The notes: generated by a model from the sequence alone, not told the origin. Shown: positions 4,210 to 26,302, counted from the stretch's first letter. The stretch is 64,000 bases of DNA from an uncultured Bacteroidales bacterium (GCA_964477095.1 CAYZDA010000002.1:42259-106258), one strand, 5' to 3'. A program made the numbers and translations.

Positions 4210-5175
4210 TTAATTATCTATGAGTCCGCGGCCTGTTTTTTTGATCTTTCCTTCGGCATTCATTTCCGCTATCAGTGTATCCAGTATTCCATTGATAAAA
4301 ATCCTGCTTTTGGGAGTGCTGTAATATTTTGATATTTCAATATATTCATTCAGTGTAACCTTTACGGGTATGGAGGGAAATTCCAGCAGCTCGGTAATAG
4401 CCATCTTCAGCAGGATCACATCCACCCGGGCAATGCGTTCAAACTCCCAGTTACGTGCACGGGCAGCAATCACTTCGTCATATTTATTTCCACTGATCAC
4501 GGTTTTACGGAAAAGATCAACGGCAAACTGCCGGTCTTCACTGCGTCCCCGCTCATCAATATCCTTAAAAACTGCCGGTAATTTTACAAATTCATCATCA
4601 GAAGGCATTACTGCCTCCACGGCATTCAACAACATCATACTCGCAGCGTAATAATCCTCATCCCAAAAGATGCTTTTCTCCTCATAAATCTGCTTCAGAG
4701 GCTGAAAGTCGGAGATAAATTCTTTGATCAGGTTGATAAGCAGTTTGCGGTCTTCCTGAAATGAATCCCTGTCGCCTTCCATGTACTTTTTATACAGCTC
4801 GGATTCCCTGATGGTATTATAGGCTTTTCTAACCACATCAGTATGTTCTTTCCAGTTTATTCTAAGACGGTTGTAGTTATTGATATAATCCCTGTTTTCC
4901 CTGATTTTTTTTATCAGCCTGTTATCAATAAATCTGGTATTGGGCTCCAGGTCCTCCCTGCTGGGTAAGAGTTTATTTTTTCCCTCTTCTATTTTCTGCT
5001 CTGCAAAATCAAAAATTTCCACCAGAAATGATAACTGGTAAACAAACAGATCATGCAGCTGCCCGAAGCTTTTCAGCATCTTTTTTTCACCTTCGCCTAT
5101 GGTTTCCTCTCCCACACTTTGATGCGCGTAAACAGCCTGCATCACCTTGATCCTCAAATGTCTTCTTGTTAGCAT
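4210..5175 (-). CDS. nusB: transcription antitermination factor NusB (long Bacteroidota form)
   Basis: The ORF runs 4210..5292. The conserved NusB N-terminus MLTRRHLRIKVMQAVYA starts at codon 40 (nt 5175). The C-terminal ...EYIEISKYYSTPKSRIFINGILD is the NusB core. Confidence 0.8.
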   Translation of the reverse strand: MLTRRHLRIKVMQAVYAHQSVGEETIGEGEKKMLKSFGQLHDLFVYQLSFLVEIFDFAEQKIEEGKNKLLPSREDLEPNTRFIDNRLIKKIRENRDYINNYNRLRINWKEHTDVVRKAYNTIRESELYKKYMEGDRDSFQEDRKLLINLIKEFISDFQPLKQIYEEKSIFWDEDYYAASMMLLNAVEAVMPSDDEFVKLPAVFKDIDERGRSEDRQFAVDLFRKTVISGNKYDEVIAARARNWEFERIARVDVILLKMAITELLEFPSIPVKVTLNEYIEISKYYSTPKSRIFINGILDTLIAEMNAEGKIKKTGRGLIDN

Positions 5176-5456
5176 TATTGTATTTTCCTGTTTCAGCACT
5201 GCAAAAGTAATGGTTTTTACGCAGCGGAGAGCAAAATTGCATACTAATTCCCGTCCTTGTCTATATAAGCTAAATAAGCGGTTTACCAGCATAATTTTTT
5301 TTGAAGCAAAACAACACTGTTATAACATGAAAAAGCTATGCAGTTTATTTATTCATGTATCATTAATGCAGAAATTTATTGCATAAGAAATATTTCTTCA
5401 TATATTTGCTGTGATAAAGGATTCTTATTTGCTGAACATCAAATAATGTTAGACAT

Positions 5457-5852
5457 ATGGCAGAGAACACAGGGAGAAATGAGATTTACGCAAACGCAGT
5501 GAGAGCAGGCAAAAGGACTTATTTTTTTGATGTCAAAGAAACACGTAAAGGCGAGTATTATCTTACCCTCACCGAGAGCAAGCGTAGATTTAGCAAGGAA
5601 CAGGGAAATTTTTTCTACGAAAAACACAAATTATTTCTTTACAAAGAGGACTTCGAAAAATTCACCGAAGCACTTGAAGATGTAATTGAGTTCATCAAGT
5701 CAAAGCAAGAGGTTGTGGAAAAGACCCATGAAAATGATTACGGGGAAGAAGAAAAACAGGATGAGAAACAGGGAGACAAAAATCTCGACAGCTCCAGTTT
5801 CTCTGATGTAGACTTTGATGATCTGGATTCAGAAGATACCTCAAAGGAGTAA
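5457..5852 (+). CDS. PUR-alpha-like nucleic-acid-binding protein (DUF3276)
   Basis: 131 aa. VRAGKRTYFFDVKETRKGEYYLTLTESKRR...FFYEKHKLFLYKEDFEKF matches the DUF3276/Pur repeat, with an acidic tail. Confidence 0.7.
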   Translation: MAENTGRNEIYANAVRAGKRTYFFDVKETRKGEYYLTLTESKRRFSKEQGNFFYEKHKLFLYKEDFEKFTEALEDVIEFIKSKQEVVEKTHENDYGEEEKQDEKQGDKNLDSSSFSDVDFDDLDSEDTSKE

Positions 5853-5874
5853 AATCACCTAAAATATTTTTCAG

Positions 5875-5901
5875 GCTGGCAGTATTGTCTGTCAGCTTTT
5901 T
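5875..5901 (+). terminator. putative intrinsic terminator after the DUF3276 gene
   Basis: GCTGGCAG-tattgt-CTGTCAGC stem (one G.T pair) followed by TTTTT. Confidence 0.5.
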
Positions 5902-5978
5902 GCGTTTAAACTTACAGCTAAATATTCCACTACCGGAATATTTCCGTAAATTTGTGCAGACAACAAAACTGTTATAAA

Positions 5979-6659
5979 ATGAAAGTTACAAGCTACGGAC
6001 ACTCCTGTTTTTCAGTGGAAGTAAAGGGAAAAAAGCTACTTTTTGACCCCTACATCAGCGAAAACCCACTGGCGGAAGAAATCGACATAAACAAACTGGA
6101 AGCCGATTATATCCTGGTTTCCCATGGTCATGAAGACCACCTGCTGGATGCAGAGGCAATTGCCAAAAGAACCAATGCCACACTGGTGGCCAACTACGAA
6201 ATTGTAAACTGGTATAAAACCAAAGGGCTTGAGAAGCTCTACCCCATGAATATAGGAGGCTCCACTATCTTAGAATTCGGGCGCGTGAATTATGTACAGG
6301 CAGCCCATTCCAGCAGCCTGCCCGATGGAAGTTATGGCGGTGTGGCCGGTGGTTTTATCATCGAAAGTGAGGAAGGTAGTTTTTACTTTGCCGGTGACAC
6401 AGGCCTGACAACAGATATGAAGCTAATCACCGAGTTTAAGGATCTGGCTTTTGCCTTTCTTCCCATAGGCGGTAAGTTCACCATGAACAGGGAGGCAGCA
6501 ATCATGGCCTCTGACTTCATTAAATGTAAAACCATTATTGGTATGCATTACGATACGTTTGAGGGCACAAAAATCGACAAGGAAGAGGCTATTGAGCAGT
6601 TTTCTTCCGTACAGAAAGAGCTGATATTATTAGACATAGGTAAAACCATAAATCTGTAG
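5979..6659 (+). CDS. MBL-fold metal-dependent hydrolase (UPF0173-like)
   Basis: [11 protein letters not shown]...[12 protein letters not shown] motif (HxHxDH). The likely start is the internal ATG at 5979 of ORF 5952..6659. Confidence 0.8.
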
Positions 6660-13758: not shown

Positions 13759-13832
13759 GGTCTGGTAGTTCAGTTGGTTAGAATGCCGGCCTGTCACGCC
13801 GGAGGTCGCGAGTTCGAGTCTCGTCCAGACCG
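13759..13832 (+). tRNA. tRNA-Asp (anticodon GUC)
   Basis: Hand-folded cloverleaf: acceptor GGTCTGG/CCAGACC, D arm GTTC..GAAT, anticodon stem CCGGC/GCCGG with loop CTGTCAC, T arm GCGAG-TTCGAGT-CTCGT, discriminator G. CCA is not encoded. Confidence 0.92.
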
Positions 13833-13842
13833 CAGATATAAA

Positions 13843-13870
13843 AGCCCGCAGGAATCCTGCGGGCTTTTTT
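13843..13870 (+). terminator. intrinsic terminator after tRNA-Asp
   Basis: AGCCCGCAGG / CCTGCGGGCT perfect stem followed by TTTTTT. Confidence 0.7.
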
Positions 13871-14730
13871 CATTTATTGGTTCTTGAATGCATGTCTGCT
13901 TGATTATCCTAAAAACAGTTATTGGATATTAACAGGAAATGGGAAAGTAGCCTGTCGCGCATAAAAATGATCCCGTAATTACACACTGATCTTCCAGTAT
14001 TGATCTCGATCAGCTTTGCTAAGCTCACAAAAAACCAGATCTTATAATAAAATTTCACTCCAATTAAAATTAGCAGTAAATCCTGACACAATATTATTAC
14101 TTTTATCAGTTATCTAATTCAATATCTACCATTTTACTATTTTGAAAAATTGCAATTATTCAGGATGACGGCATATGTCTCAATATGATATTCATTCCAG
14201 GGTAAAGCATTATTTCCCAAAATAATACAAGGATCCCATTTTTAGCAATCTCATGTTTTGCTCATACCTTACTCATACCTCACTCGTACCATTCTCAAGT
14301 AAAATTCTTGTCTGCCGGCAGCGGATTTGGAGAAAGCACGAACAAGGTATGAGGAAAACATGAAGATATCTTTTCCCAAAAACACAAAGAACAAAGATCA
14401 AAGAAGAAACCGAAAGCATCATATCTATTGGTTCTGTATTTTTCACGCCTATCGTTCAGGTGCCTGTATCCTCTCATGACCAGCCAAGCTGACTGTGACC
14501 CAGAGATACAAAAAATGAAATTATTATTCCAGCAAAAAAGAATAAAAAAAATTGCCCGATAAAAACCAATCGTTATTTTTGTTAAGGATATTTCAAGTCG
14601 CCATTGTCACTCAGCAGATCGCTCCACTGTAATTGAGGGAGCGGAGCTTTGTCAGTAACTAAAAGACTGTAATTTGATTACAACACGTACAATCATAGTA
14701 TGCAAACAAAATATGCTTAAATAAACAGAT

Positions 14731-15816
14731 ATGAAAAAGTCAGAAAGCGTCCAGAAAAAAATTGAAACTGTATTTAGGCAACAGGTAAAGAATGATGAAA
14801 AAGTAAAAAATGCTTACCTGCTTGTTCAATCTGCCAAACTGGGAATTGACATAAACATAGCCGAAGGCCAGACAGGTGAAATGCAGGCAAACCCTAAGCA
14901 GGCCAACCATTTGGCCTCAGTTGGCAAATTGTTTACAGCCACTGCTGTAAGTATGCTGCATGATCAAGGTTTGCTGGCGTTTAATGACAAAATAAAAGAC
15001 TATCTGGATGCTGACCTGATGCGCAATTTACATGTTTATAAGGGTAAAGATTATTCCGGTGATATCAGCATCAAGCATTTATTAAAACAAACATCCGGCT
15101 TGAATGATGTATTTTTTCCCTTATTGAAAAAAATGACGAATGACCCTGCACTTGAAATGACGGTGAGAGAGGCTCTGGAATGGGGAAAAGCGAATCAAAA
15201 ACCTGTTGCCAGGCCTGGCCAAAAGCATGTTTATAATGACACAAATTATTACCTGCTGGGGTTGATCATAGAAACCATCACTAAAAAACCTTTTCACGAA
15301 GCAGTTCATGAAATGATCCTTGAGCCGTTAGGTATGGATAATTCCTATATAAACGGTTATTCGGAACCAAAGAACAAACCCCGGTTTCCACCGGCGCACA
15401 TCTATCTATCCAACATCAATTTTATAGAGGATAAAAGAATAGCAAAGATTGACTACGCAGGAGGTGGTGTGGTGGCTCCTCTGAGCGAATTCCTCATATT
15501 TATGAAAGCATTGGCAAATGGTAAACTGGTAAAGGAATCCACCTTAAATCAAATGATTAATGACGATGTAAAAATGGGATTCCCGGTTTTAGGTTTTGAC
15601 TATGGTTATTCAATATGGAAGCCCAGAGCCATACCGGTATTGATGCCCGAAAAGTTTTTTTGCTGGGGCTGCGTGGGTGTTACCGGAGCTTTTTTGTTTT
15701 ACCACCCGCGAACTGAAGCTTATGTTGCAGGTACATTTAATGACCAATCCTACACCTCTAAAGCATTGAGATTTATGCTCATGAAAGTGATTAAACCATT
15801 ACTGGATGTTAACTAA
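14731..15816 (+). CDS. serine hydrolase of the beta-lactamase/PBP fold (class C-like)
   Basis: 361 aa. SxxK motif in LASVGKLFTATAV, followed by ...HLLKQTSGL... and YNDTNYYLLG, typical of the AmpC-related esterase/transpeptidase family. Confidence 0.75.
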   Translation: MKKSESVQKKIETVFRQQVKNDEKVKNAYLLVQSAKLGIDINIAEGQTGEMQANPKQANHLASVGKLFTATAVSMLHDQGLLAFNDKIKDYLDADLMRNLHVYKGKDYSGDISIKHLLKQTSGLNDVFFPLLKKMTNDPALEMTVREALEWGKANQKPVARPGQKHVYNDTNYYLLGLIIETITKKPFHEAVHEMILEPLGMDNSYINGYSEPKNKPRFPPAHIYLSNINFIEDKRIAKIDYAGGGVVAPLSEFLIFMKALANGKLVKESTLNQMINDDVKMGFPVLGFDYGYSIWKPRAIPVLMPEKFFCWGCVGVTGAFLFYHPRTEAYVAGTFNDQSYTSKALRFMLMKVIKPLLDVN

Positions 15817-15918
15817 ATCCATGAGTAACAAAACAGCATTAAAAGGACATTTATAGAAAAAACTGTAAATAAACTCAGATTTATTTTACATTAATATTTA
15901 TCTAAAACATTATATTTT

Positions 15919-16527
15919 ATGAAAAAACAAGCACTTACAGCAGTATTTCTTTTATCATTGATCATTTCAATGAGTTCCTGCAGCAAGGATGACGACTGCG
16001 TGGAATCGACATGGTATGAAGACAGCGACAACGATGGATTTGGTAATCCTGAAGTGACAAAATTATCCTGTGATCAGCCTGCAAATTTTGTGGCAAACTC
16101 CAGTGATGTTGATGATACTGATCCCAATCTAAATCCGAATACGGTATGGCAGGGACCAAAAATCACATTCACAAAAGAGAATTATGCCGACTGGACCCAG
16201 GAAGCGAATCAGGACAGAATAACTGATAATGTCTGGATTACACGGAAGGACAAAAAAGGTATATTCAATATCGTTACTGAAACTTCATATTCTGATTTTG
16301 TGTCCCCTGCTGATACGGAGTGGGCAATTGGCACCACAGCTGAAATATCAGATTTAACTTTTCTGAGCTGGGAAGATGCCAGCGGAAGTGAACCTCCGGC
16401 TTTAGTTAATCAGGATATGGTTGTTCATTTGATCAAAGACAATCTTTACCTGGATATCAAATTCACTTCCTGGCAATCCGGTGGGCAGGGAGGCGGGTTT
16501 TCCTATGAGCGCTCAACAAAAAATTGA
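15919..16527 (+). CDS. lipoprotein with an acidic DxDxDGxG-type putative metal-binding motif
   Basis: Lipobox (ISMSSC). EDSDNDGFGNP motif and C-terminal GGQGGGFSYER. Confidence 0.55.
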   Translation: MKKQALTAVFLLSLIISMSSCSKDDDCVESTWYEDSDNDGFGNPEVTKLSCDQPANFVANSSDVDDTDPNLNPNTVWQGPKITFTKENYADWTQEANQDRITDNVWITRKDKKGIFNIVTETSYSDFVSPADTEWAIGTTAEISDLTFLSWEDASGSEPPALVNQDMVVHLIKDNLYLDIKFTSWQSGGQGGGFSYERSTKN

Positions 16528-16611
16528 TGCTAATATTTGAGGTAATTACCTCCTGAAAAAGCAGCAGTATAATTTGGATTTGCTCTATTTTTGTACCAAA
16601 ACATACAAAAA

Positions 16612-17076
16612 ATGAAAGAGTACATTATTTTCAGCGGGTTATTTTTTATCATACACCTGGCCTGTTATATTGTGGCGGGGGTGATTGACCTTCAATTAGC
16701 AAAAAAGATATATGCCGGCAAAAACCGCCTGTTTAAATCCTTTTTCCGGGATATGGATATTGAAACAGAGAGGCTCCGCATTGGCAGATTACTTCTTCCT
16801 TCACAGTTCGCCAGAGCTATATTAATGTCATTGGTGCTTTATCCCATACTGCCATTTATTAAAGAACTAACATTTGGAGTACAGTTTATTTTTATGGGAT
16901 CACTGATGTTTGTATATGCCGATTTTGCCAGTGCCATTCCATTTTCCAATACGATTGAAGGTATTGTTTATCTGAAAAAGCAATACGTTGAAAGAAAAGT
17001 TTTCTGGACTATCCAGTTTGAAGCAATAATGTACAGCCTGTTATTTGGATTATTATCCGCCTGGCTTCTTATTTAG
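16612..17076 (+). CDS. hypothetical multi-pass membrane protein
   Basis: About 4 predicted hydrophobic helices. The likely ATG is at 16612 within ORF 16591..17076. TATTTTTG (-7-like box) lies just upstream. Confidence 0.45.
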   Translation: MKEYIIFSGLFFIIHLACYIVAGVIDLQLAKKIYAGKNRLFKSFFRDMDIETERLRIGRLLLPSQFARAILMSLVLYPILPFIKELTFGVQFIFMGSLMFVYADFASAIPFSNTIEGIVYLKKQYVERKVFWTIQFEAIMYSLLFGLLSAWLLI

Positions 17077-17110
17077 CTGTGGAGTTCTAAAGCATTGAAA
17101 ATATAGCACC

Positions 17111-17887
17111 ATGGTAAATTTTTCAGAAAGATATAAAACTCTCACGGATATTGAATTAGTAAGGGTGGTTAAAAATCAGGCTGACTACCAGGCTGAGGCC
17201 GTTGAAGCAGCGAAACGTGAAATCATTCGCCGCAATCTCACTGAACAGGAGTTGGAAAAAGCGTCAGATGAACTGGAAGCCCGGCAACAGGAAAAACAAA
17301 TGCAGTATGAGCAAAGGTCTGAATATGGTGAAAAGCTAAAAAGCTTTGGTAATTCGGTCCTGGAAGTCATCATTCCATTCCGGAAATCAGCACCTACAGC
17401 AGAAAGATTGAAGCATCTGATTACAATAGTATTTGGATTAATAGCTGCCATACAAATCTTCAGCCAGTCAGGAATGATCTCATACATCTTAACTGACGAT
17501 ATACGCTACTGGGATATCAGTACTGCCGGCTACCTTTTGTCGTTGCTATTGCTTCCCACCGCTGTAATACTGTTCGCCTTAAGAAAAAAATCCGGCTGGA
17601 TATTACTTACAGCATATCTTACCTGGTCATGTATAAGCTCATTTGGTTTGATGGTCATGTTATGGTATATACAGCCATCCGGTGTAACTGCACCTGACGG
17701 GCTGCTGCCTGCCACCTCTCTCCTAACCCAAATTATCATCATACTGATTTACGGCGGTACAGTTTGGCTATTGAACAAAAAAATACTCACAGAATATTTT
17801 AATATAAGCCGGAAAACTGCTGTAATCACCATCGTGGTCACAGGAATTCCAGCCATTCTTTTTATAGCATCTTTCCTGATCACCTGA
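17111..17887 (+). CDS. hypothetical membrane protein (soluble helical N-domain plus about 5 TM helices)
   Basis: 258-aa ORF. Charged N-terminal third, hydrophobic remainder. No family recognised. Confidence 0.45.
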   Translation: MVNFSERYKTLTDIELVRVVKNQADYQAEAVEAAKREIIRRNLTEQELEKASDELEARQQEKQMQYEQRSEYGEKLKSFGNSVLEVIIPFRKSAPTAERLKHLITIVFGLIAAIQIFSQSGMISYILTDDIRYWDISTAGYLLSLLLLPTAVILFALRKKSGWILLTAYLTWSCISSFGLMVMLWYIQPSGVTAPDGLLPATSLLTQIIIILIYGGTVWLLNKKILTEYFNISRKTAVITIVVTGIPAILFIASFLIT

Positions 17888-18393
17888 AAACTATAACATA
17901 CAACCTCAGAACATGATAAAAAGGAAAAAAAGATCAAAATGGCAGCAGTTTCTAAATGGTTTATATAAAATCATTCAGTTATACTTCTTCCCTGTTTTAG
18001 GTACTCCCAATAACAGCAGGAACCGAAACACCATTTTCGACAAACACAAAAAATTCAGGCAACGGTATTAGGCAATACCGTTTAAAACATGATATCCGGA
18101 AATAACAATTTGCCCCTTAATTGAATTGATTACCTTAACAACAAAAACTGTTGGATGGTAATAAAGAGAACTAACCGGGGATGGTTTTAAAAAACTCCGC
18201 CAGCTTCCCTCCTTCGAGAAGAGGCGTCTTGAAAATAGCACGATTAAAGAAAAAGTGCAAGACAAAATAATAATTATGAATCTGAGGGTAATGAATAATA
18301 TTGTACGTTTGTATTTGCAAGGATAAGATGGACACAAACCCTGCAAATACGCATGAATATATCAGTATAAGAACGGTTTTACCTTTCTTATAA

Positions 18394-19155
18394 ATGAGTT
18401 GTGGCCAATTAAAAAAAATGAGACCTTCTTCAAATCAACTATTGATCGTTAGCTTTCTTATAAGCATAATTACCCTCACGGTTCTTGTTTATCATCGTGA
18501 ACTTAAATTGAACGACATTCATCATGACATCCTATTTTCATTCTTTCTTATTTCTTTGATTATTAGTAGTTATGGACTGTTCGCCGGAATTAAAAAAAGA
18601 AGGACAAACAGAAGGCAATGGGTAGGCATAGTGGGTAATTTGCTTTTAATAATTCCTCTTGCGATTCTTTCGTTTAAATACTTGAGATACCTCACCCAAA
18701 AACCGGATTTCGAGATTTTTAAACTTGAGAAGTTTAATTATAACAAGGCAAGTATTAATGATGGCGATAAGATAAAAATCCTATCAATCTCTGATGGTAA
18801 AGATTGTACAAAAGATGAAACCTACTACTATTCTGTTATTGGAGTAGTACAGAGAAATAAAGACACCGTGAGAATCCTGACTCCTTGCCAGGTTCTTTCA
18901 CAAAACTTTACAGATGCGACATTTAATTCTCCTGACCAATCTAAGGACAGTATTATGAATGTCGTTGGATACGAGATAAAGGGTGAAAAATATGTCATTA
19001 TTAATCAGGACTTACCTTACCAAAAAATTGACTTTAATGTAGCTATTGGAAGTCTCTCATTTAAAGACGACAAAAATGAAATTTTAAAAGAGGAATTAAA
19101 ATATAAAAACATTGACACAAATTTACTGGAAGCACCTAAGCATGAGATCAAGTAG
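18394..19155 (+). CDS. hypothetical membrane-anchored protein
   Basis: 253 aa. Three N-terminal TM helices, then a soluble Lys/Asp-rich domain. Very AT-rich codon usage. Confidence 0.45.
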   Translation: MSCGQLKKMRPSSNQLLIVSFLISIITLTVLVYHRELKLNDIHHDILFSFFLISLIISSYGLFAGIKKRRTNRRQWVGIVGNLLLIIPLAILSFKYLRYLTQKPDFEIFKLEKFNYNKASINDGDKIKILSISDGKDCTKDETYYYSVIGVVQRNKDTVRILTPCQVLSQNFTDATFNSPDQSKDSIMNVVGYEIKGEKYVIINQDLPYQKIDFNVAIGSLSFKDDKNEILKEELKYKNIDTNLLEAPKHEIK

Positions 19156-19315
19156 AAAACTGGCCACAATTTTATTCGGGTTTAGATCGATTTTTGGGCT
19201 TATTTCGGCTCTTTACATCATTTCTGCAGCTGTTTTTGCAAAATCGTTGGATGAGCCAATTTTTTCTGTTACCTTTACACAACAAACCGAAAAAGTACAA
19301 AACAGTAACGTATAG
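19112..19315 (+). CDS. small hypothetical membrane protein whose last 18 codons (including the stop) lie in repeat copy 1
   Basis: 67-aa ORF with one TM helix (FGLISALYIISAAVFA). The C-terminus FSVTFTQQTEKVQNSNV* is encoded by the 82-bp repeat. Confidence 0.3.
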   Translation: MTQIYWKHLSMRSSRKLATILFGFRSIFGLISALYIISAAVFAKSLDEPIFSVTFTQQTEKVQNSNV

Positions 19316-19343
19316 CAGTGGTTTTTAGACGGACTGACGTTAC
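19262..19343. repeat. 82-bp repeat, copy 1
   Basis: TTTTCTGTTACCTTTACAC...AGTAACGTATAGCAGTGGTTTTTAGACGGACTGACGTTAC. It is 70/82 identical (ungapped, counted by hand) to copy 2. It contains an imperfect hairpin, GTAACGT...ACGTTAC with an inner CAGT/ACTG. Confidence 0.8.
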
Positions 19344-19384
19344 CCCTATGCGGAAAAATTCCACCGTCAAAGCAACTAATTTTT

Positions 19385-19416
19385 TTTGCATAAAAGTAAA
19401 TTTATATTTACCTTTG
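19385..19416 (+). promoter_or_regulatory. Bacteroidota-type promoter of hicAB
   Basis: TTTG (19385-19388), a 20-nt spacer, then TACCTTTG (19409-19416, TAnnTTTG). It lies 32 nt upstream of the hicA ATG. Confidence 0.45.
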
Positions 19417-19447
19417 TGTTAGTTCAAATAGATAAACTGACATTTTA

Positions 19448-19642
19448 ATGAAATGTTCAGAATTGTATAGACTTTTGACTAAAGATGGATGGTATGCAGT
19501 ATCTCAAAAAGGGTCACATGTGAAAATGAGACATGATTTAAAACCTGGATTGATAATTTTTCCAGATCATGGATCACAGGAAGTTGGTAAGGGATTGGAG
19601 AAAAAGATACTTAAAGACGCAGGAATTAACAAAAAAAGTTAG
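19448..19642 (+). CDS. hicA: HicA-family mRNA-interferase toxin
   Basis: 64 aa. ...LLTKDGWYAVSQKGSHVKMRH...IIFPDHGSQEVGKGLEKKILKDAGI fits the YcfA/HicA pattern (GSH..., P.H, K.aG). Confidence 0.85.
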   Translation: MKCSELYRLLTKDGWYAVSQKGSHVKMRHDLKPGLIIFPDHGSQEVGKGLEKKILKDAGINKKS

Positions 19643-20046
19643 TGACTATGAAAAAACTAAAAGAGAAAATAAAATTAATCGTCGAAAAGACAGATACTGG
19701 ATTCTCCTGTTATTCTGAAGATTATCCAATATTTACGACAGGAAAAACAATTCCGGATTTGATGGCGAATTCATTTGAATCTGCGACTCTGTATTTCGAA
19801 GACGAGGGGATTGAAGTTAAACATTCTGACCTTCAATTTGAGGTAGATTTTCAGCAATTCTTTCAATATTACAAGGTGATAAACTCAAAATACCTGGCAA
19901 AAAAGATTGGCATGAATCCAACCTTGTTGAGTCAGTACGTGCAAGGACATAAAAAACCTTCGGAAAACCAGACTGAAAAGATTTTATATGGAATTCATCA
20001 AATTGGTCAGGAATTATCAGAAATGAATTTGATTTTCAGAAAATAA
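19642..20046 (+). CDS. hicB: HicB-like antitoxin with a C-terminal HTH
   Basis: Abuts the hicA stop (GTG at 19642, or ATG at 19648). The N-terminus (EKTDTGFSCYSEDYPIFTTGKTIPD) is HicB-fold-like. The C-terminus (LAKKIGMNPTLLSQYVQGHKKPSENQ) is an XRE-type HTH. Confidence 0.75.
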   Translation: MTMKKLKEKIKLIVEKTDTGFSCYSEDYPIFTTGKTIPDLMANSFESATLYFEDEGIEVKHSDLQFEVDFQQFFQYYKVINSKYLAKKIGMNPTLLSQYVQGHKKPSENQTEKILYGIHQIGQELSEMNLIFRK

Positions 20047-20181
20047 AGCACAGGCGGCAACAGCGATTCATAAAGCAAAGGCAATGAGAACGTTTTTATA
20101 CGTTCTGGATTATATATTAACACCGCCAAGTAAGGCCTTCGCTTCATAACAGCGTACGTAGCCACACATTAAAAGGAAAAC

Positions 20182-20688
20182 ATGAGACTGATAATTACCT
20201 TTTCATTCGTTCTTTTCACATTGACCACTTTTGGTCAGACGAGGGTTCTTGACAAAGGAAGTGGAGATTACCGAAAATTGGGAAAGGCGGTAACTGTTCT
20301 TGAATTAATAGAGCAAGGAAAAGCTCAAGCCGTGTACTCTCACCTGCCAAACAGCATAACTGTTGACACTATGGAATTTGAAAAAATCATTCACCAGGTT
20401 ACAGAAATTTATCATCATGAAGAAGGCTCAACACCGTCAGCTTTTATCAATGACAAATCTTCTTCTCTTTGGTACGAAAGAACTTATTTCACGCGAACAG
20501 AGACTGGAATTGAATATCAAATCCAAATATATCTAGAACTGATAGAAAATAATGGATCAGTAATGATCTCTAAAATTGAGTTTAGAGAGAAAGATGAGAT
20601 TAAACCAGGGACAAAAGAAATTGAACAACTGGGCAGAGTGGATGAAAATAATCCTCCACCCCCTCCAGCTCCACCAGGAATGAGATAG
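20182..20688 (+). CDS. secreted hypothetical protein with a Pro-rich C-terminus
   Basis: Signal peptide (FSFVLFTLTTFGQ). C-terminal NNPPPPPAPPG. No family recognised. Confidence 0.45.
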   Translation: MRLIITFSFVLFTLTTFGQTRVLDKGSGDYRKLGKAVTVLELIEQGKAQAVYSHLPNSITVDTMEFEKIIHQVTEIYHHEEGSTPSAFINDKSSSLWYERTYFTRTETGIEYQIQIYLELIENNGSVMISKIEFREKDEIKPGTKEIEQLGRVDENNPPPPPAPPGMR

Positions 20689-20945
20689 AAAAAACGTGTG
20701 CCCAATATCCAGGAATATGAGCGGCAGGCTCCCTTTTAGTTATCGGGAGCTCAGCGAGTATTAGATAGCCATCGGAATCCGGCAAGCCGATATTACGACC
20801 CTTCCCTATGTTATATTTTCCAACGTTTTTGGATATATTATGAGGATTTATTTTGAGCGAAAGAGCAGAAATTCAAATAGAAATCCGGGTATTTCGTTTC
20901 CGGCCTCTTTTCTTTTCTTCTGCCAAAACCATAGGATCAAACATG

Positions 20946-21027
20946 ATTTTCTATTACCTTTACAAAGCAAACTGAAAAAATACAAAATAGTAACTTTTAG
21001 CGGGGTTTTTTAGACGGACTGACGTTA
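20946..21027. repeat. 82-bp repeat, copy 2
   Basis: TTTTCTATTACCTTTACAAAG...AGTAACTTTTAGCGGGGTTTTTTAGACGGACTGACGTTAT. The peptide frame of copy 1 is retained (FSITFTKQTEKIQNSNF*), but a TGA sits immediately upstream at 20943. Confidence 0.8.
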
Positions 21028-21106
21028 TAGCCAATTGAAAAATTTCGATCAGAAAAAAGCAATAAAAAACTACTTTAAATGTTCCATTATTAGTTAACTT
21101 TGTTAA

Positions 21107-21463
21107 ATGGACAGAAATCGACAACTTATTTATTTCAAGAACTATTTTTGGAGATTCTTCAACAAGCAACCTGAAAATGTAAAAGATAAAATTGATTACG
21201 TTCTTTACCTTGTGACTTATGCGGAACGGATACCAAAAAAGTTCTTTGATAATTTAAAAGGATATGACGGCTGATTTGAAATCAGGATTGAATTTGAGAG
21301 CAATATTTATAGAATCTTTTGCTGTTTCGACCAGGGAAATATAGTTGTCCTTTTCAACGGGTTTCAAAAAAAGACCCAAAAGACTCCAAAAAAGGAAATT
21401 GAAAAAGCAATGCGGATCAAGAACGAATACTTTGAATTAAAAATCAAAGGAGAAAATAAATGA
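21107..21463 (+). pseudogene. HigB/Gp49-like (DUF891-type) toxin interrupted by an in-frame TGA
   Basis: Hand translation from the ATG at 21107 gives 55 codons (MDRNRQLIYFKNYFWRFFNKQPENVKDKIDYVL...KGYDG). A TGA follows at 21272, then the same frame continues FEIRIEFESNIYRIFCCFDQGNIVVLFNGFQKKTQKTPKKEIEKA... to a TGA at 21461. That stop overlaps the antitoxin ATG (ATGA). Confidence 0.7.
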
Positions 21464-21750
21464 AAAACATAACAACATTTGATGAGCATCTTGACCAAAG
21501 ATACGGCAAGAAAGGAACTGAAAAAAGGACTGAATTTGAAATTAAGGCTAAAGCTTTTGCAATTGGGGAAATCCTTAGAGATGCAAGGAAGCAAGCAAAC
21601 ATGACACAGGAAGAACTTGCAAAAAAAACAGGAACAAGAAAAAGTTTTATATCCCGAATTGAAAATGGTCATAGCGACATTCAATTATCAACCCTTTACA
21701 GACTTGTTGAAATTGGATTTGGAAAAAGTTTAAACCTGACTATCAGATAA
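21460..21750 (+). CDS. XRE-family HTH antitoxin (HigA-like)
   Basis: 96 aa. IGEILRDARKQANMTQEELAKKTGTRKSFISRIENGHSDIQLSTLYRL is a canonical Cro/C1 HTH. The start is coupled to the upstream toxin frame. Confidence 0.8.
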   Translation: MKNITTFDEHLDQRYGKKGTEKRTEFEIKAKAFAIGEILRDARKQANMTQEELAKKTGTRKSFISRIENGHSDIQLSTLYRLVEIGFGKSLNLTIR

Positions 21751-22498
21751 GAATCAACTGGATATAACAGCAGCTCAATTATAACTTTCAAGCACAAGAA
21801 AGATTTGAAGGACAATCTCTACTAATGGAATGCCTGGAAGAAATTCCTTTTAGCTATTCGACCAAAGACAAAGGACCTTTCATGGAAGCTGTGAATCACC
21901 TGGATAGCATTGAACTCGTATTAGTAACTACAAAAAGATGAAAAGACCCGACCTACGCATTTTACTACTTCCAGAAATTCGTGGCGGTTCATGGAGAAAG
22001 CGCTTATTTGGTTTCACCAGAAGTATTTCACAATGAAACCAGTAAGCATTCCTCGCTATTTCTCAATTACAAAAAGAAGACACACTTCTTCTATCGAGCT
22101 GATTGTTTCAGACAAAATTTGAAAGAACATGAAGAACTAAGTTAGATTCTAAAAAAGGAATAAAAACGGCTACCAATAAATTAAGATTTAAGCAGCGCGC
22201 ATTACCTGCAAGTAGTTCCCGATCTGCCCTCGTTTTACGGGCTTGACTTAAATCCAATCCCCTGGCTATATTTTGCGATTTATTGTAGTTTTTGGGAAGC
22301 ATCCGTACCTTTTTGCTTTCAAAACATTATCCTGTTATTTTAAAAAAACATTCCTTTGTAAATAACTCTCCATAAGTAGAAACGAATGCGATAATTTTGA
22401 GAGACTCCTTAGTATAATGAAGGTAATGTATTATATCAGAACATTTACTTGTTTTAATATGAAACATTTTGTATTTTTGTATGGAAAACGATATAAAA

Positions 22499-23296
22499 AT
22501 GGATACGATAAATCAAAAAGAGTTGGGAAATAGAATATCTGAACTTCGGAAGATAAAGGGATATTCTCAATATGAGCTTGCTAAATTGGTGGAAATTTCA
22601 AGACCATCTTTAACTCAGATTGAATTAGGTAATAGAAATGTATCCGTAATCGAACTTAAAAAGATTGCAGATCATCTCTCCATTTCAATTGATAAATTAT
22701 TATCACATGATTTTGAAACTGAGGATATAATTTTTGCTTCCTCTGATTCTCCAGATAGCCAGGAATTAAGAATATCAACACCCAAATTAAATGTCGATAA
22801 GTTTAAAGAAATATTGCTATACATTCTTGAGAAATGTGCAGGCAAACCAAACATAGGAGAAACACTATTATACAAACTATTATATTTTTCTGATTTTAAT
22901 TATTATGAGATATTCGAAGAGCATTTAACAGGTGCAGAGTACAGGAAACTTCCTTTTGGTCCTGTACCCCAGGGGATTGATTCTATTATAAAACAGATGA
23001 TTACAAATAAAATGATAAAAAGGCTTAAAACAGAATATCACGGTTATCCACAAACAAGATATATTCCTTTAATAAAACCAAATTTGAAGCGCCTGAAGGC
23101 AAGTGAAAAAGATATTATTGACAAAGTGATTGAGCAGTTTTCAGACTGGTCTGCATCAGCAATTAGTGATTATTCTCATAAAGATATGCCCTGGTTAGCA
23201 TCAAAAGATGGAGATGTTATTGACTATGAGCTGGCATTTTACAGAGAGCATCCATATTCAGCCAGAACTTACAATGACGATATTTCTGAGCGATGA
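22499..23296 (+). CDS. fused XRE-HTH / DUF4065 (Panacea, SocA-like) antitoxin
   Basis: N-terminal HTH (LGNRISELRKIKGYSQYELAKLVEISRPSLTQIELGNRN). C-terminal ...ETLLYKLLYFSDFNYYEIFEEHLTGAEYRKLPFGPVP... matches the DUF4065 core. The ORF opens at 22469, but a TATTTTTG box at 22472-22479 favours the ATG at 22499. Confidence 0.8.
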   Translation: MDTINQKELGNRISELRKIKGYSQYELAKLVEISRPSLTQIELGNRNVSVIELKKIADHLSISIDKLLSHDFETEDIIFASSDSPDSQELRISTPKLNVDKFKEILLYILEKCAGKPNIGETLLYKLLYFSDFNYYEIFEEHLTGAEYRKLPFGPVPQGIDSIIKQMITNKMIKRLKTEYHGYPQTRYIPLIKPNLKRLKASEKDIIDKVIEQFSDWSASAISDYSHKDMPWLASKDGDVIDYELAFYREHPYSARTYNDDISER

Positions 23297-23637
23297 ACAT
23301 TGAGGAATTAGATGAATATAAGAAGGATTTAAAGAAACTTTCCAGGAAATACAGGACAATAGCTGAAGATATAGAAGTTGTTAAGAAGGTTCTGTTTGTA
23401 AATCCCAATGAAAGACCTCCTTTTAGTTTTAGGATTGATAACCTGGGAATAGAAACGTGTGTAATTAAAGTAAAAAAAATTGCAAGTAAGTCTTTTAAAG
23501 GAAAAGGTGTGAATTCTGGATTTCGATTGGTCTATGCTCACTTTGAAAATGTGAATAAAATTGTTTTAGTTGAGTTATATCACAAATCTAAAAAGGAGAT
23601 TGAAGATAAGGATAGAATTATTAATAATTTTAAGTAA
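23293..23637 (+). CDS. RelE/ParE-superfamily toxin-like protein
   Basis: 114 aa with a 4-nt overlap (ATGA) on the upstream antitoxin. ...KGKGVNSGFRLVYAHFENVNKIVLVELYHKSKKEIEDKD resembles the GyR(l/v)iY...iyhKs tail of RelE/HigB-type toxins. Confidence 0.65.
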   Translation: MNIEELDEYKKDLKKLSRKYRTIAEDIEVVKKVLFVNPNERPPFSFRIDNLGIETCVIKVKKIASKSFKGKGVNSGFRLVYAHFENVNKIVLVELYHKSKKEIEDKDRIINNFK

Positions 23638-23649
23638 AGGAGTATTTAT

Positions 23650-23693
23650 CAAGTGCATATAGTAACGTTTAGCGGTGATTTTTAGATGGACTG
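23650..23693. repeat. 82-bp repeat family, truncated copy 3 (core only)
   Basis: ATAGTAACGTTTAGCGGTGATTTTTAGATGGACTG (23659-23693) matches the copy-2 core at 31/35 and copy 1 at 30/35. The left 40 nt and the terminal ACGTTA are missing or diverged. Confidence 0.65.
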
Positions 23694-24005
23694 TCCCGAA
23701 AATTTGGAGAGACTGCATTGTGCGTTAATTGAGCGAAAAAGAAAAAAACACTTGACATATACGGACTAAAAATGAATATTTGTACGTATTAATAACCCAA
23801 AAGCTTATTTTTGAAAAGAAAACATCATATAGGCCAATTATTTGAGGTTAAATAAATTCAATGGTAACTGGAAAAATGATCTGCATATTCATTCTGTTTA
23901 TCAAATAAGACTAACAAAGTGAGAACAAATTGCAGCTGTAATATTTTCGGTGACTAAAACTTATACGTAAATAATACAGTTTTGAAGATATTAACCAGTC
24001 TGCTT

Positions 24006-24476
24006 ATGAAAACAACAATTTTTGCATTCATTCTTCTACTTCATTCTCTCGTGTTTTATGGCCAAAACAGGGTTTATAACATTAAAGACACTACCAATGA
24101 AGGCCTTACCATGAGCGACCTTGACAGCATATATAAAAATGGTCTATCGGCGAATGATTCTACAAATCCTGTGTTCTCTCATGAGGCTTTTGATTCGATA
24201 GTAAAGCCGGAAAGACAGAAACTTCTGCGAAACCTCCGCGCTCATTTTGACGATAATGGGTTTAACTGGCAACCTGCATTAATGATCTGGACGCGTATGT
24301 ACGTGGATGAAAATGGCAGGATCGACTATCTTCTTTACCATTTTATAACTCCCATTAACAGCATAAAAGAAGCAGAATTTCGAAAAACAGTCAACAAATT
24401 TCTAATGGAAAACAAGTTAAACATTTCAGCTCCGGTAAAATTTTCCATCTGTGGCAGAGTGGTATTTAAAGAATGA
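24006..24476 (+). CDS. secreted hypothetical protein
   Basis: Signal peptide (MKTTIFAFILLLHSLVFYGQ) from the ATG at 24006 within ORF 23982..24476. No family recognised. Confidence 0.45.
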   Translation: MKTTIFAFILLLHSLVFYGQNRVYNIKDTTNEGLTMSDLDSIYKNGLSANDSTNPVFSHEAFDSIVKPERQKLLRNLRAHFDDNGFNWQPALMIWTRMYVDENGRIDYLLYHFITPINSIKEAEFRKTVNKFLMENKLNISAPVKFSICGRVVFKE

Positions 24477-24631
24477 TGAACTGGCCCATAGAACGGAAAA
24501 ATGACAAAATTCCAATAATTCTTAAATTTGTAAGATTCGTTTATATACTCGACAATGAAGGGAAAAAAATTGCGCTGTGGGAGCCAAATGATCCTGAATA
24601 TGAAAAATTGGTTGAAGGCAGAACGAAATAA
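24473..24631 (+). CDS. possible 52-aa ORF translationally coupled to the upstream gene (below the ORF-track cutoff)
   Basis: Hand translation: MMNWPIERKNDKIPIILKFVRFVYILDNEGKKIALWEPNDPEYEKLVEGRTK*. Its ATG overlaps the upstream TGA (ATGA). Confidence 0.3.
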   Translation: MMNWPIERKNDKIPIILKFVRFVYILDNEGKKIALWEPNDPEYEKLVEGRTK

Positions 24632-24699
24632 ATTAACAGCACCCAATAAATAGGGTCTGCTGAAAAACACATGTGAAATAAAATAATAATTTACCCCAG

Positions 24700-25143
24700 T
24701 TGAGAAAGTTTATCATTCCTCCGGTTTTTGTGGCACTATCAGTCCTGCTGATGGTGGGCTTTTACTTTGCACTTCCAGCCTTTCAGATATTGCCTTTCCC
24801 TTTAAATCTGTCAGGCATTCCCATAAGTATTGCAGGTTTTATAATTATGGGGAAATCCAGGGATTTATTCAAAAAACATCAAACCACTCTTGATATAAAA
24901 CCTTCAACTTACCTGATTCGGGAAGGCATTTTCGCCAAATCAAGAAACCCCATGTATCTGGGCATGTTCCTGTTGCTGCTGGGACTGGGCTTTTGTTTTG
25001 GTAATCTGTTTTCTCTGATCACACCTCTGTTGTTTATTTTACTCATGCATTTTATATTTGTGCTGAAGGAAGAAAAAATGATGGAGCAGGAATTCCGGCA
25101 GGAATACCAGGAATATAAGGTAAAAGTAAAAAGATGGATTTGA
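24700..25143 (+). CDS. isoprenylcysteine carboxyl methyltransferase (ICMT)-family membrane methyltransferase
   Basis: 147 aa, 4 TM helices. SRNPMYLGMFLLLLG and C-terminal EEKMMEQEFRQEYQEYKVKVKRWI are the family hallmark. TTG start. Confidence 0.7.
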   Translation: MRKFIIPPVFVALSVLLMVGFYFALPAFQILPFPLNLSGIPISIAGFIIMGKSRDLFKKHQTTLDIKPSTYLIREGIFAKSRNPMYLGMFLLLLGLGFCFGNLFSLITPLLFILLMHFIFVLKEEKMMEQEFRQEYQEYKVKVKRWI

Positions 25144-25390
25144 ATGATTATTAAGGACAGTGTGGACGGCCTGAGCAGGGAGATAGAAAATGGCAGGCTC
25201 CTGAAAAGACCAGGTTTTGTTGTCCGGCGGATGATTCACCTTTGTTTTCAATAGTTCACATGAATATTGAAGCGGTAGATCACAGTGTAAGCTGCAAAAA
25301 AATGCCGCAACAGATATTCCGGTGTCTTTGACGGTAAGCATTGATTCTGACAGACTACAATCAAAAGCAATAAATAAAAAGCTTAATATT

Positions 25391-25876
25391 ATGGAGACCG
25401 TGGAAAAACTTGAAAGGCGCAGCACGCACGTTCATCAGGTAGGTATTGAGGCACCTGCTGCAAAAGTATGGGATTTCCTGCTTAATATTGAACATAATTA
25501 TACGCGGTGGCATCCCTCGGATCATGTACTTTTTAAATGGACCGGAGGTGAACCAATGGCGAAAGGTTCAACCTTTTATGCCGAACAAATGATGATGAAC
25601 AATAAGGTGAAATACAAAGGAATGATAACCGAAAGCCTACCGGGCAGAAAAATTAGCATGAAATTTTCATTTCCACTTTCACTGATCACAGAAAAAATAG
25701 AAATGATCATTGAGGATCATGGCAAATACTCTACCTTCAAGCATATCACCCATCTAAAATTTCTTTTCTTATCACGCACGATTTTCAGAAAAAGAAACTT
25801 GCGAATGCTTAGCGATATGGACCTTCATGTAAAAACCGAAGCAGAAAACATGAAACAGTTGCTGGATGAGCATTAA
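25391..25876 (+). CDS. SRPBCC (START/polyketide-cyclase-like) family protein
   Basis: IEAPAAKVWDFLLNIEHNYTRWHP... is the typical SRPBCC N-terminus. ATG at 25391 within ORF 25322..25876. Confidence 0.55.
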   Translation: METVEKLERRSTHVHQVGIEAPAAKVWDFLLNIEHNYTRWHPSDHVLFKWTGGEPMAKGSTFYAEQMMMNNKVKYKGMITESLPGRKISMKFSFPLSLITEKIEMIIEDHGKYSTFKHITHLKFLFLSRTIFRKRNLRMLSDMDLHVKTEAENMKQLLDEH

Positions 25877-26302
25877 GCATTAGTAGTATCATGATGATTA
25901 TTTTTTTCAGACCGGCTTAAGATTAGTGGTGTTAATTATACCATAACAGTCTGTTTTACCGCTTAATAAACATCCCGTTCATTATTTGTCTTATTTAGTA
26001 AATCTGTCAGCTAAAGGAAATATGACTGATCCAGGAGACAAACAAATAATGGAATACTTCCAAAAGCTGGAGAATGCTAAATCAAATGATTTTTTTGATG
26101 AAATAAATTGAGGCAAATAAACCAGAGATTATTACAAATAATTATAATATATGGAAGTAGCAATTCAAAACCTACCTCACTAACTCAATCAGATGGATAT
26201 AAATCTTTTATTAAGAAGATTGAAAGCTACAATTATAATAATAACTGTAGCAAATTGGCCACTTATCCTATAGCAACAAAAAGGTTCCCGAAAGAATTAA
26301 AC

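Follow-up and report, generated by a model that had tools for sequence, protein, structure and literature searches.

INTRODUCTION

Integrons are the standard example of gene capture by way of folded single-stranded attC sites and are regarded as rare in Bacteroidota. Sedentary chromosomal integrons have species-specific families of conserved attC sites, such as the repeats of Vibrio cholerae, and in Acinetobacter plasmids each pdif (Xer) module stands between inverted copies of a single 28-bp site. Here we describe a 64,000-nucleotide stretch of DNA from an uncultured Bacteroidales bacterium (GCA_964477095.1, CAYZDA010000002.1:42259-106258; referred to below, at its full length, as the window), in which a recurrent junction element, designated (ii), stands between small gene modules, and we set this locus beside the systems it most resembles.

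Cassette arrays without an integrase are already known as CALIN, clusters of attC sites lacking an integron integrase (Cury et al. 2016, PMC4889954; IntegronFinder 2.0, PMC9024848). The Bacteroidetes genomes covered by IntegronFinder 2.0 were reported to have only In0 elements and one complete integron, that of Salinibacter (PMC9024848), and a later review counts Bacteroidota among the integron-bearing phyla (PMC8618304). Copies of the kind called delta-attI have variable lengths, 14 to 244 nt as counted from the crossover (PMC12901181). We propose, with a probability of about 0.68, that (ii) is a junction element of an integron-type gene-cassette array in a Bacteroidales chromosome and that its likeliest role would be that of a double-stranded attI-like or delta-attI partner.

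RESULTS

The repeats of the window are the conserved 3' part of a longer element

An initial annotation of the window had described an 82-bp repeat that would delimit toxin-antitoxin modules, with two full copies and a third, partial one. Its core, AGTAACNTNTAGCNGNGNTTTTTAGAYGGACTG, is found at 19304, 20989, and 23661, always on the + strand, and had no match in 100 shuffles of the 64-kb window. The ungapped identity of 70/82 reported for copies 1 and 2 was reproduced once the second copy had been shifted by one base (19262-19343 versus 20947-21028), the register given for it originally yielding only 32/82. A repeat search extended the pair to 123 nt with 76% identity (19239-19361 versus 20924-21046), and the third copy turned out to be real, with 30/35 and 31/35 positions identical to the other two. 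The weaker similarity said to continue for about 40 nt downstream came to merely 16/40 without gaps, and a gapped BLAST alignment reached 19417/21103 at 70%. Motifs of the form TAnnTTTG, which we take to be the -7 box of Bacteroidota promoters, are located here (19409-19416 and 21095-21102), upstream of hicA and of the Gp49-like toxin gene. The toxin-antitoxin cassettes seem to carry their own promoters, and the presence of these motifs in both may account for the weak similarity past the repeat.

On alignment, the 82-bp repeats are the conserved 3' part of a noncoding element of ~170 to 200 nt, which is (ii) (Table 1). We carried out pattern scans of one genome per species, metagenomes, viral contigs, and a plasmid collection. 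The search for the core in genomes and metagenomes that had been suggested at the outset gave true loci in both, one contig from the genomes (L001) and one from the metagenomes (L002), and one further metagenome match was due to chance. The plasmid collection had no match to (ii), and the viral contigs had chance matches only, none of them true. Two copies of (ii) are present in L001 and one in L002, all between unrelated genes, and their homology to the window runs over ~170 nt by alignment and BLAST. Copy 1 of the window is 69 to 77% identical to the L001 and L002 copies over 132 to 173 nt and was matched by the profile at 19180-19341 (nhmmer, E 4e-45). For copy 2, the nhmmer match covers 20872-21026 (E 3e-41) and the BLAST homology with the outside copies ~20870-21026. 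A profile built from the five long copies recovered with nhmmer those five, copy 3 of the window, and a 25-nt tip in another contig, L022, only. The two long copies of the window share 69% identity and are no closer to each other than to the foreign copies. Neither the core pattern scan nor nhmmer found a copy in the remaining 51 kb of the window.

Each (ii) copy of L001 forms the right-hand part of an intergenic junction whose neighboring genes, an esterase gene and a TlpA-family gene, are unrelated. This contig (JBNJGP010000194.1, 3.3 kb) is labelled as part of a Candidatus Muiribacteriota metagenome-assembled genome; since the identity of its TlpA protein reaches 86% with Nonlabens agnitus and 82% with Aequorivita, L001 is probably a mis-binned Flavobacteriales contig. 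In L001, L002, and copy 2 of the window, (ii) is preceded by another conserved part, (i), which has the form CAAT-ATATAGGAATATGAGCGG ... CCCTGGCTATAT ... ACG/TT (here and below, a slash between bases marks the crossover) and starts immediately past the stop codon of the upstream gene. From its position and end motifs, part (i) would be the attC-like part of the junction.

Conservation of (ii) stops at a fixed point. In the alignment of all five long copies it halts at ...GGACTGNCG/TT, with 76 to 89% identity in the last 45 nt versus 21 to 64% in the 20 nt past GTT, and the base following CG/TT is a purine in 5/5 copies. The conserved end can be written as the pattern ...TTTTTAGACGGACTGNCGTT, and its tip holds two direct repeats, TTTAG(A)CGG. 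The three copies of the window differ in length (45 nt for copy 3, ~172 nt for copy 1, and ~200 nt for copy 2), and all retain the crossover end. At the 3' end of a cassette, (ii) stands in for the attC in copy 1 and probably also in copy 3; copy 1 starts directly after the R''-like box of the upstream cassette, which encodes a 253-aa protein, a few bases past the stop codon. By-eye reading of copy 3 suggests that it is followed by a partial duplication of ~22 nt (TTTGGAGAGACTGCA) and tentatively places its crossover at A(23717)/TT(23718-23719).

The start and the end of a module are complementary

A box ending in AAC or AAT lies within 12 nt past the last stop codon of a module and is complementary to the module-specific bases that follow G/TT. 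In three of the four cases tested, this stop-adjacent box was the best reverse-complement match in 2.9 kb. For the 253-aa cassette, the two boxes are complementary at 11/13 positions (core TTGTGGCCA versus TGGCCACAA, 9/9), and the second begins 2 nt past the stop codon at 19153-19155. The boxes of the cassette with the Gp49-like toxin and its helix-turn-helix (HTH) antitoxin are complementary at 13/15 positions, the best such match in 2.9 kb, the end box being 4 nt past the stop codon at 21748-21750. Complementarity was 8/8 and 12/13 for the end boxes of L001 (TTGGCAGC versus GCTGCCAA and TTGTGCACAATTA versus TAACTGTGCACAA). It was weak for the hicAB end box (GGCGGCAAC, 6/8) and also for the 168-aa cassette. 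The modules have an inverse core (RYYYAAC-like) complementary to the cassette start, and this complementarity of start and end boxes is the R'/R'' relation of integron cassettes.

One cassette occurs after (ii) as well as after canonical attC sites

In L001, a TlpA cassette follows (ii). With an identical start, G/TTGTGCACAATTAAAACC, and an identical end box, TAACTGTGCACAAY, it recurs in two other settings: canonical attC hairpins precede it in a 71-kb contig (L010/L011), and in L014/L015, where it again follows hairpin attC sites, it is the third cassette after a tyrosine recombinase gene. In all, three arrays other than that of L001 have it behind canonical hairpin sites. Its start is G/TTGTGCAC whether the site in front of it is (ii) or any of three different attCs. 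Because one cassette is found behind (ii) as well as behind canonical attCs, the 3' end of (ii) is an integron-type cassette junction. A sister cassette, P0010, occurs on 23 contigs with three different downstream cassettes, all of which start G/TT, and with two upstream sites, one of which, in L022, is a diverged (ii) tip (TTTTGAGACAGACTGCCG/TT). The crossover is fixed between G and TT of a GTTRRRY-like core. These comparisons establish that (ii) ends at an integron-type crossover and that the modules following it behave as cassettes. The proposal of the initial annotation that the repeats are cassette-boundary recombination sites therefore stands in substance, on account of the TlpA cassette and the end complementarity; the 43-nt hairpin by which they were supposed to work does not (see below).

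Downstream, the TlpA open reading frame (ORF) carries the same R'' box followed by four unrelated attC bodies (in L001, L010, L014, and L016). Divergence sets in right after ...CACAA(C/T), which implies that R'' is a second breakpoint or that attC bodies are replaced inside arrays.

The contig with the canonical sites (L010/L011, JGI contig Ga0612054_0624) has at least 28 attC sites of ~190 nt, which fall into two sequence classes. The sites are bounded by 9-nt boxes at either end, and in several neighbors compared by eye the R' and R'' boxes that succeed one another showed complementarity at all 9 nt. No gene was called in many of the cassettes of ~1 kb; the contig has two copies of the TlpA cassette, and HEPN, KAP NTPase, and PDDEXK genes are among its cargo.

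In L014, attC-bounded cassettes are directly preceded, on their own strand, by a gene for a 372-aa tyrosine recombinase (5029-6147). The best solved relative of the protein is XerA (4a8e), it has an N-terminal extension of ~100 aa, and it scored 187 bits versus the 265-bit cutoff of the integron integrase model TIGR02249. Alignment with VchIntIA (2a3v) gave two stretches, the better one matching residues 294-370 of the query to 242-318 of the chain, and from these stretches the recombinase appears to be without the IntI-specific insertion. The spacer that follows the recombinase gene resembles the tip of (ii) (TAGACGTAACTGAG/TTACC), but the first cassette begins 17 nt further on; the likeness is suggestive of a master site.

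The junction element has no hairpin, covariation, or stable reading frame

The hairpin put forward in the initial annotation, an attC-like fold of ~43 nt with GTAACGT paired to ACGTTAC and CAGT to ACTG, forms in copy 1 only and is no better than the folds of shuffled sequences. Its z scores in copies 1, 2, and 3 were -0.7, +1.1, and +0.45 on the + strand and -0.8, +1.7, and +1.35 on the - strand. We rejected it because it folds at the background level and neither copies 2 and 3 nor the foreign copies retain the pairing. A single long hairpin was likewise rejected, both for (ii) alone (copy 1, z -0.9) and for the whole 330-nt junction (z +1.4 and +1.9 for the window and L001). The consensus fold of the five long copies (alifold) had an energy of -4.7 kcal/mol, unpaired ends, and one compensatory pair, and the imperfect hairpin of attC sites (R''-L''/L'-R') is not found in (ii). 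Positive-control attCs from the relatives had z scores of -5.5, -3.0, and -2.4, and their R and L stems were as expected. In a crude arm-pairing scan, 190-nt control attCs (-25 to -39 kcal/mol) stood apart from the background, short attCs did not, and the junctions of the window were at the background level (-12 to -13.5 kcal/mol). No Rfam family, intron domains included, matched (ii), Rfam being without an attC family, and the sigma-70 promoter-like and terminator-like sites at (ii) were at the background level.

These results bear on the main rival explanation, according to which (ii) would be a relic of the right arm of a ~190-nt attC (L', R', and a portion of the variable loop), or else a complete cassette without an ORF that became widespread in arrays, and the junctions of the window would be dead fossils with no present recombination. 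The arrays of the relatives do use conserved ~190-nt attCs, of the Flavobacteriales kind, and have many ORF-less cassettes. In addition, (ii) starts exactly at the ...ACG/TT end of part (i) in copy 2 of the window and in L001, as would be expected of a separate cassette; its tip, TAGACGGACTGACG/TT, is similar to L'-R' ends of the canonical type, among them CCTAGCCCGGCCCG/TT; and the window has signs of decay. Neither (ii) nor (i), however, has significant homology to the attC classes of L010 (nhmmer; E > 1 for (ii)), the two long copies of the window are as far from one another (69%) as from the foreign ones, and that the last 45 nt are strongly conserved in different orders speaks for a live constraint. 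Half an attC, moreover, cannot fold, yet (ii) sits at the junctions of cassettes that are mobile elsewhere. We consider this explanation unlikely.

A small nonautonomous mobile or regulatory element is a considerably less probable identity for (ii). The candidates would be an element similar to miniature inverted-repeat transposable elements (MITE) or repetitive extragenic palindromes (REP), the remnant end of an attC-targeting insertion sequence or group II intron, or a promoter or small RNA module, with the GTT end reflecting a target preference of the element itself. The compactness and sequence conservation of (ii), its presence in more than one order of Bacteroidota, and its orientation, always that of the downstream genes, would suit such an element, but terminal inverted repeats and target duplications are absent, and so are any structure, an Rfam family, promoter or terminator sites above background, and copies in the other 51 kb of the window. 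Plasmids gave none and viral contigs only chance matches, and the same TlpA cassette uses an identical junction at attC sites. Nor does (ii) have the character of a MITE/REP-like dispersed repeat or of a common repeat unrelated to module ends, for its three copies all lie within the 12-kb block described below, each ending at a module boundary.

The initial annotation had also offered a model of serial insertion at the 3' end of a small membrane-protein gene (19112-19315), in which every element brings a replacement end and leaves behind displaced partial copies; islands at tRNA genes or gene 3' ends and CIME-like accretion would be comparable. The copies are indeed direct repeats in a single orientation, an open frame ends within copy 1, copy 2 retains a similar peptide, and the block adjoins a tRNA gene. 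The ORF exists as described but is probably spurious as a gene. Its frame is broken or shifted in the second copy of L001, in L002, and in copy 2 of the window; its variable columns number 23, 13, and 17 at codon positions 1, 2, and 3, with no third-position excess; and no Pfam family matched it. A peptide profile from another frame of the repeat (19194-19325) found no homologue, and coding potential of the repeat in general was rejected, no frame being consistent and the weak third-position excess in that other frame (13, 17, and 23) not being significant by our own estimate. With the ORF probably spurious, the basis of the model is gone. There is, besides, no such target gene in L001, where the repeat lies between the esterase and TlpA genes; the inter-repeat segments carry no integrase; and the similarity runs ~100 nt upstream of the copy as originally delimited, up to the stop codon of the 253-aa gene. 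An integrative island at a gene 3' end does not describe the locus, and we find the model barely credible.

Other junctions and gene content of the block

The features of the window are listed in Table 1. A DnaN 86% identical to that of Bacteroidales metagenome-assembled genomes and the presence of PorP/SprF mark the host as an uncultured Bacteroidales bacterium. The low-GC block of 12.5 kb, with its co-oriented small genes, adjoins a tRNA-Asp gene (13759-13833). The copies of (ii) do sit at module boundaries in this block, as had been claimed, and further boundaries exist that are not marked by them.

Table 1. Junction features and cassette bodies located in the window
Feature	Position	Strand	Description
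(ii) copy 1	19170..19341	+	Last 82 nt are copy 1 of the initial annotation; crossover G(19339)/TT(19340-19341)
(ii) copy 2	20826..21026	+	From the ...AACG/TT end of part (i) to G(21024)/TT(21025-21026), start of the Gp49/HTH cassette
(ii) copy 3, truncated	23651..23695	+	Last ~45 nt only; nhmmer E 3e-6, model positions 116-161
Part (i) copy A	20696..20825	+	R''-like box GTGTGCCCAAT after the stop of the 168-aa gene, then ATCCAGGAATATGAGCGG ... CCCTATGTTATAT ... AACG/TT
Part (i) copy B	22168..22278	+	GGCTACCAAT ... CCCCTGGCTATAT ... GCGA/TT
Imperfect attC-like hairpin after hicB	20053..20158	+	R''-like GGCGGCAAC, ~13-bp inner arms, right end ...CGTACG/TAGCC
253-aa cassette body	18399..19169	+	Inverted terminal boxes TTGTGGCCAATTA (18399-18411) and AAACTGGCCACAA (19157-19169)
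hicA/hicB cassette body	19340..20052	+	Begins TTACCCC right after (ii) copy 1; Pfam HicA_toxin E 8e-20
Gp49-like toxin/HTH antitoxin cassette body	21025..21768	+	Boxes GTTATAGCCAATTGA (from 21024) and TCAACTGGATATAAC (21754-21768)
67-aa ORF	19112..19315	+	Target gene of the initial annotation; TTG start, overlaps the 253-aa gene, mostly inside (ii)
Low-GC block, putative cassette array	13834..26300	+	31-39% GC versus 42-48% in the flanks; credible genes all on the + strand

Part (i) was rejected as a significant hairpin (z about 0). Copy A, a motif match, is similar to the L001 junctions and had a fold z of +0.4; copy B is the only one whose ends pair (CTACCAATAAAT with ATTTATTGTAG). A very diverged (ii) possibly follows copy B at about 22279-22412; this weak likeness was seen by eye, and nhmmer did not detect a fourth copy there. 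The only hairpin-like junction of the window is the one after hicB, which folds on the bottom strand with -14.8 kcal/mol (z -1.4; 17/200 shuffles were equally good). A candidate hairpin after the HTH antitoxin gene (21752-21935) was discarded (z +1.0). Strong noncoding hairpins are present elsewhere in the block, at 14240-14375 (z -3.5, 20-nt arms) and 18285-18405 (z -3.8, two hairpins). Generic inverted-repeat scans and the crude attC arm-pairing scan were too noisy in this AT-rich DNA to be used for counting cassettes.

In the 253-aa ORF, the earliest ATG (18394) straddles the predicted boundary G/TT at 18398/18399, and the ATG at 18418 is more likely to be the true start. The Gp49/HigB-like toxin gene (21107-21463) has an in-frame TGA at 21272-21274, readthrough of which gives a full PF05973 domain (E 4.5e-22), and the HTH antitoxin gene (21460-21750) is intact. 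The segment 22469-23637 encodes an antitoxin of 275 aa with HTH and SocA/Panacea domains and, overlapping it, a 114-aa partner that has no Pfam family and is a candidate new toxin.

DISCUSSION

The locus compares most directly with CALIN. Like these, it has short co-oriented cassettes with unrelated cargo, toxin-antitoxin pairs included, joined at G/TT; its cassettes have complementary, cassette-specific R' (GTTR...) and R'' (...AAY) boxes; and the array is lower in GC than its flanks, with no integrase in reach. As the window contains no integrase, the array would be of the CALIN kind; an IntI gene with an attI site does not adjoin it. Unlike in CALIN, the recurrent junction (ii) is a conserved sequence of ~170 to 200 nt and not a hairpin, and most junctions of the window are without measurable attC folding.

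In these last respects (ii) is closer to attI and delta-attI, being a hairpin-free site defined by its sequence and not by a fold, with the crossover at the 3' end before TT. The direct repeats upstream of its crossover are reminiscent of DR1 and DR2, the direct repeats of attI1. Its copies inside arrays, 5' truncated to various lengths, take the place of attC at cassette 3' ends, as those of delta-attI do. It differs in having no sequence similarity to attI1 or attI2, in not lying beside an integrase in any contig recovered, and in being present in several long copies in one array and in different organisms, and its role as a site is putative.

The attC families of sedentary integrons and of Ga0612054_0624 share with (ii) the recurrence of a conserved junction element along an array of unrelated cassettes, and the same ORF is tied to different junction bodies in different hosts. 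Those attCs, however, are strongly folding imperfect palindromes (z -5.5 for an attC of Ga0612054_0624), and (ii) is not. The pdif modules are likewise small, often encode toxin-antitoxin systems, and are bounded by short tyrosine-recombinase sites, and the recombinase of the L014 array is Xer-like; here, in contrast, the end boxes are cassette specific, the junctions are directly oriented, and the crossover obeys the G/TT rule. The array as such is thus of a known type, and what appears new is an unstructured junction element, conserved in sequence and common to two orders.

Since (ii) is conserved in sequence and not in fold and its 5'-truncated copies keep the crossover end, an attI-like role is the most likely one. 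We envisage that the cut between G and TT would be made by an IntI/Xer-type tyrosine recombinase whose gene lies elsewhere; that the last ~30 to 45 nt of (ii), with the TTTAG(A)CGG direct repeats, would make up the putative binding and crossover site; and that (ii) would most likely act as a double-stranded partner of the attI or delta-attI type rather than as a folded attC.

Several observations weigh against this proposal. The hairpin potential of the window junctions is at the background level, which means that the array may be inactive. No tyrosine recombinase was found among the 40 ORFs of the window that were tested, and no remnant of one by tblastn with the L014 recombinase as the only query. 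The full (ii) element was found in just two outside contigs, and among the contigs recovered no copy lies beside a recombinase gene; the label attI-like hence describes behavior alone, and on this point the attI-like reading is not separable from that of a relic or ORF-less cassette. Same-strain contigs from three other samples are colinear with the window and have no indel polymorphism. The strain comparison proposed in the initial annotation could thus be made, but it is uninformative on polymorphism, as these contigs merely break at the tRNA gene (ends at 13785-13794, inside it) and inside the repeat. Finally, the boundaries of the hicAB, panA, and 164-aa cassettes are weak and were drawn by eye, and the latter two are kept as tentative.

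The array of the window looks partly decayed, with a nonsense codon in a toxin gene, cassette remnants, and weak hairpins. A bolder version of the proposal, which we regard as doubtful, would make (ii) a new class of double-stranded attI-like site in arrays, passing between Bacteroidales and Flavobacteriales and acted upon by a Xer-like recombinase without the IntI-specific domain, such as that of the L014 array. If that were true, Bacteroidota would have an integron-like branch of their own in which hairpin attCs and unstructured sites recombine at the same G/TT.

The locus and its relatives display integron-type cassette traffic in Bacteroidales and Flavobacteriales, with a cargo that includes toxin-antitoxin and defense-like genes. 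Should (ii) be a relic, it would be a record of how a cassette array decays following the loss of its integrase. Should it be an active site, it would widen the substrate range of integron-like recombinases, and hairpin-based tools such as IntegronFinder would overlook arrays of this kind.

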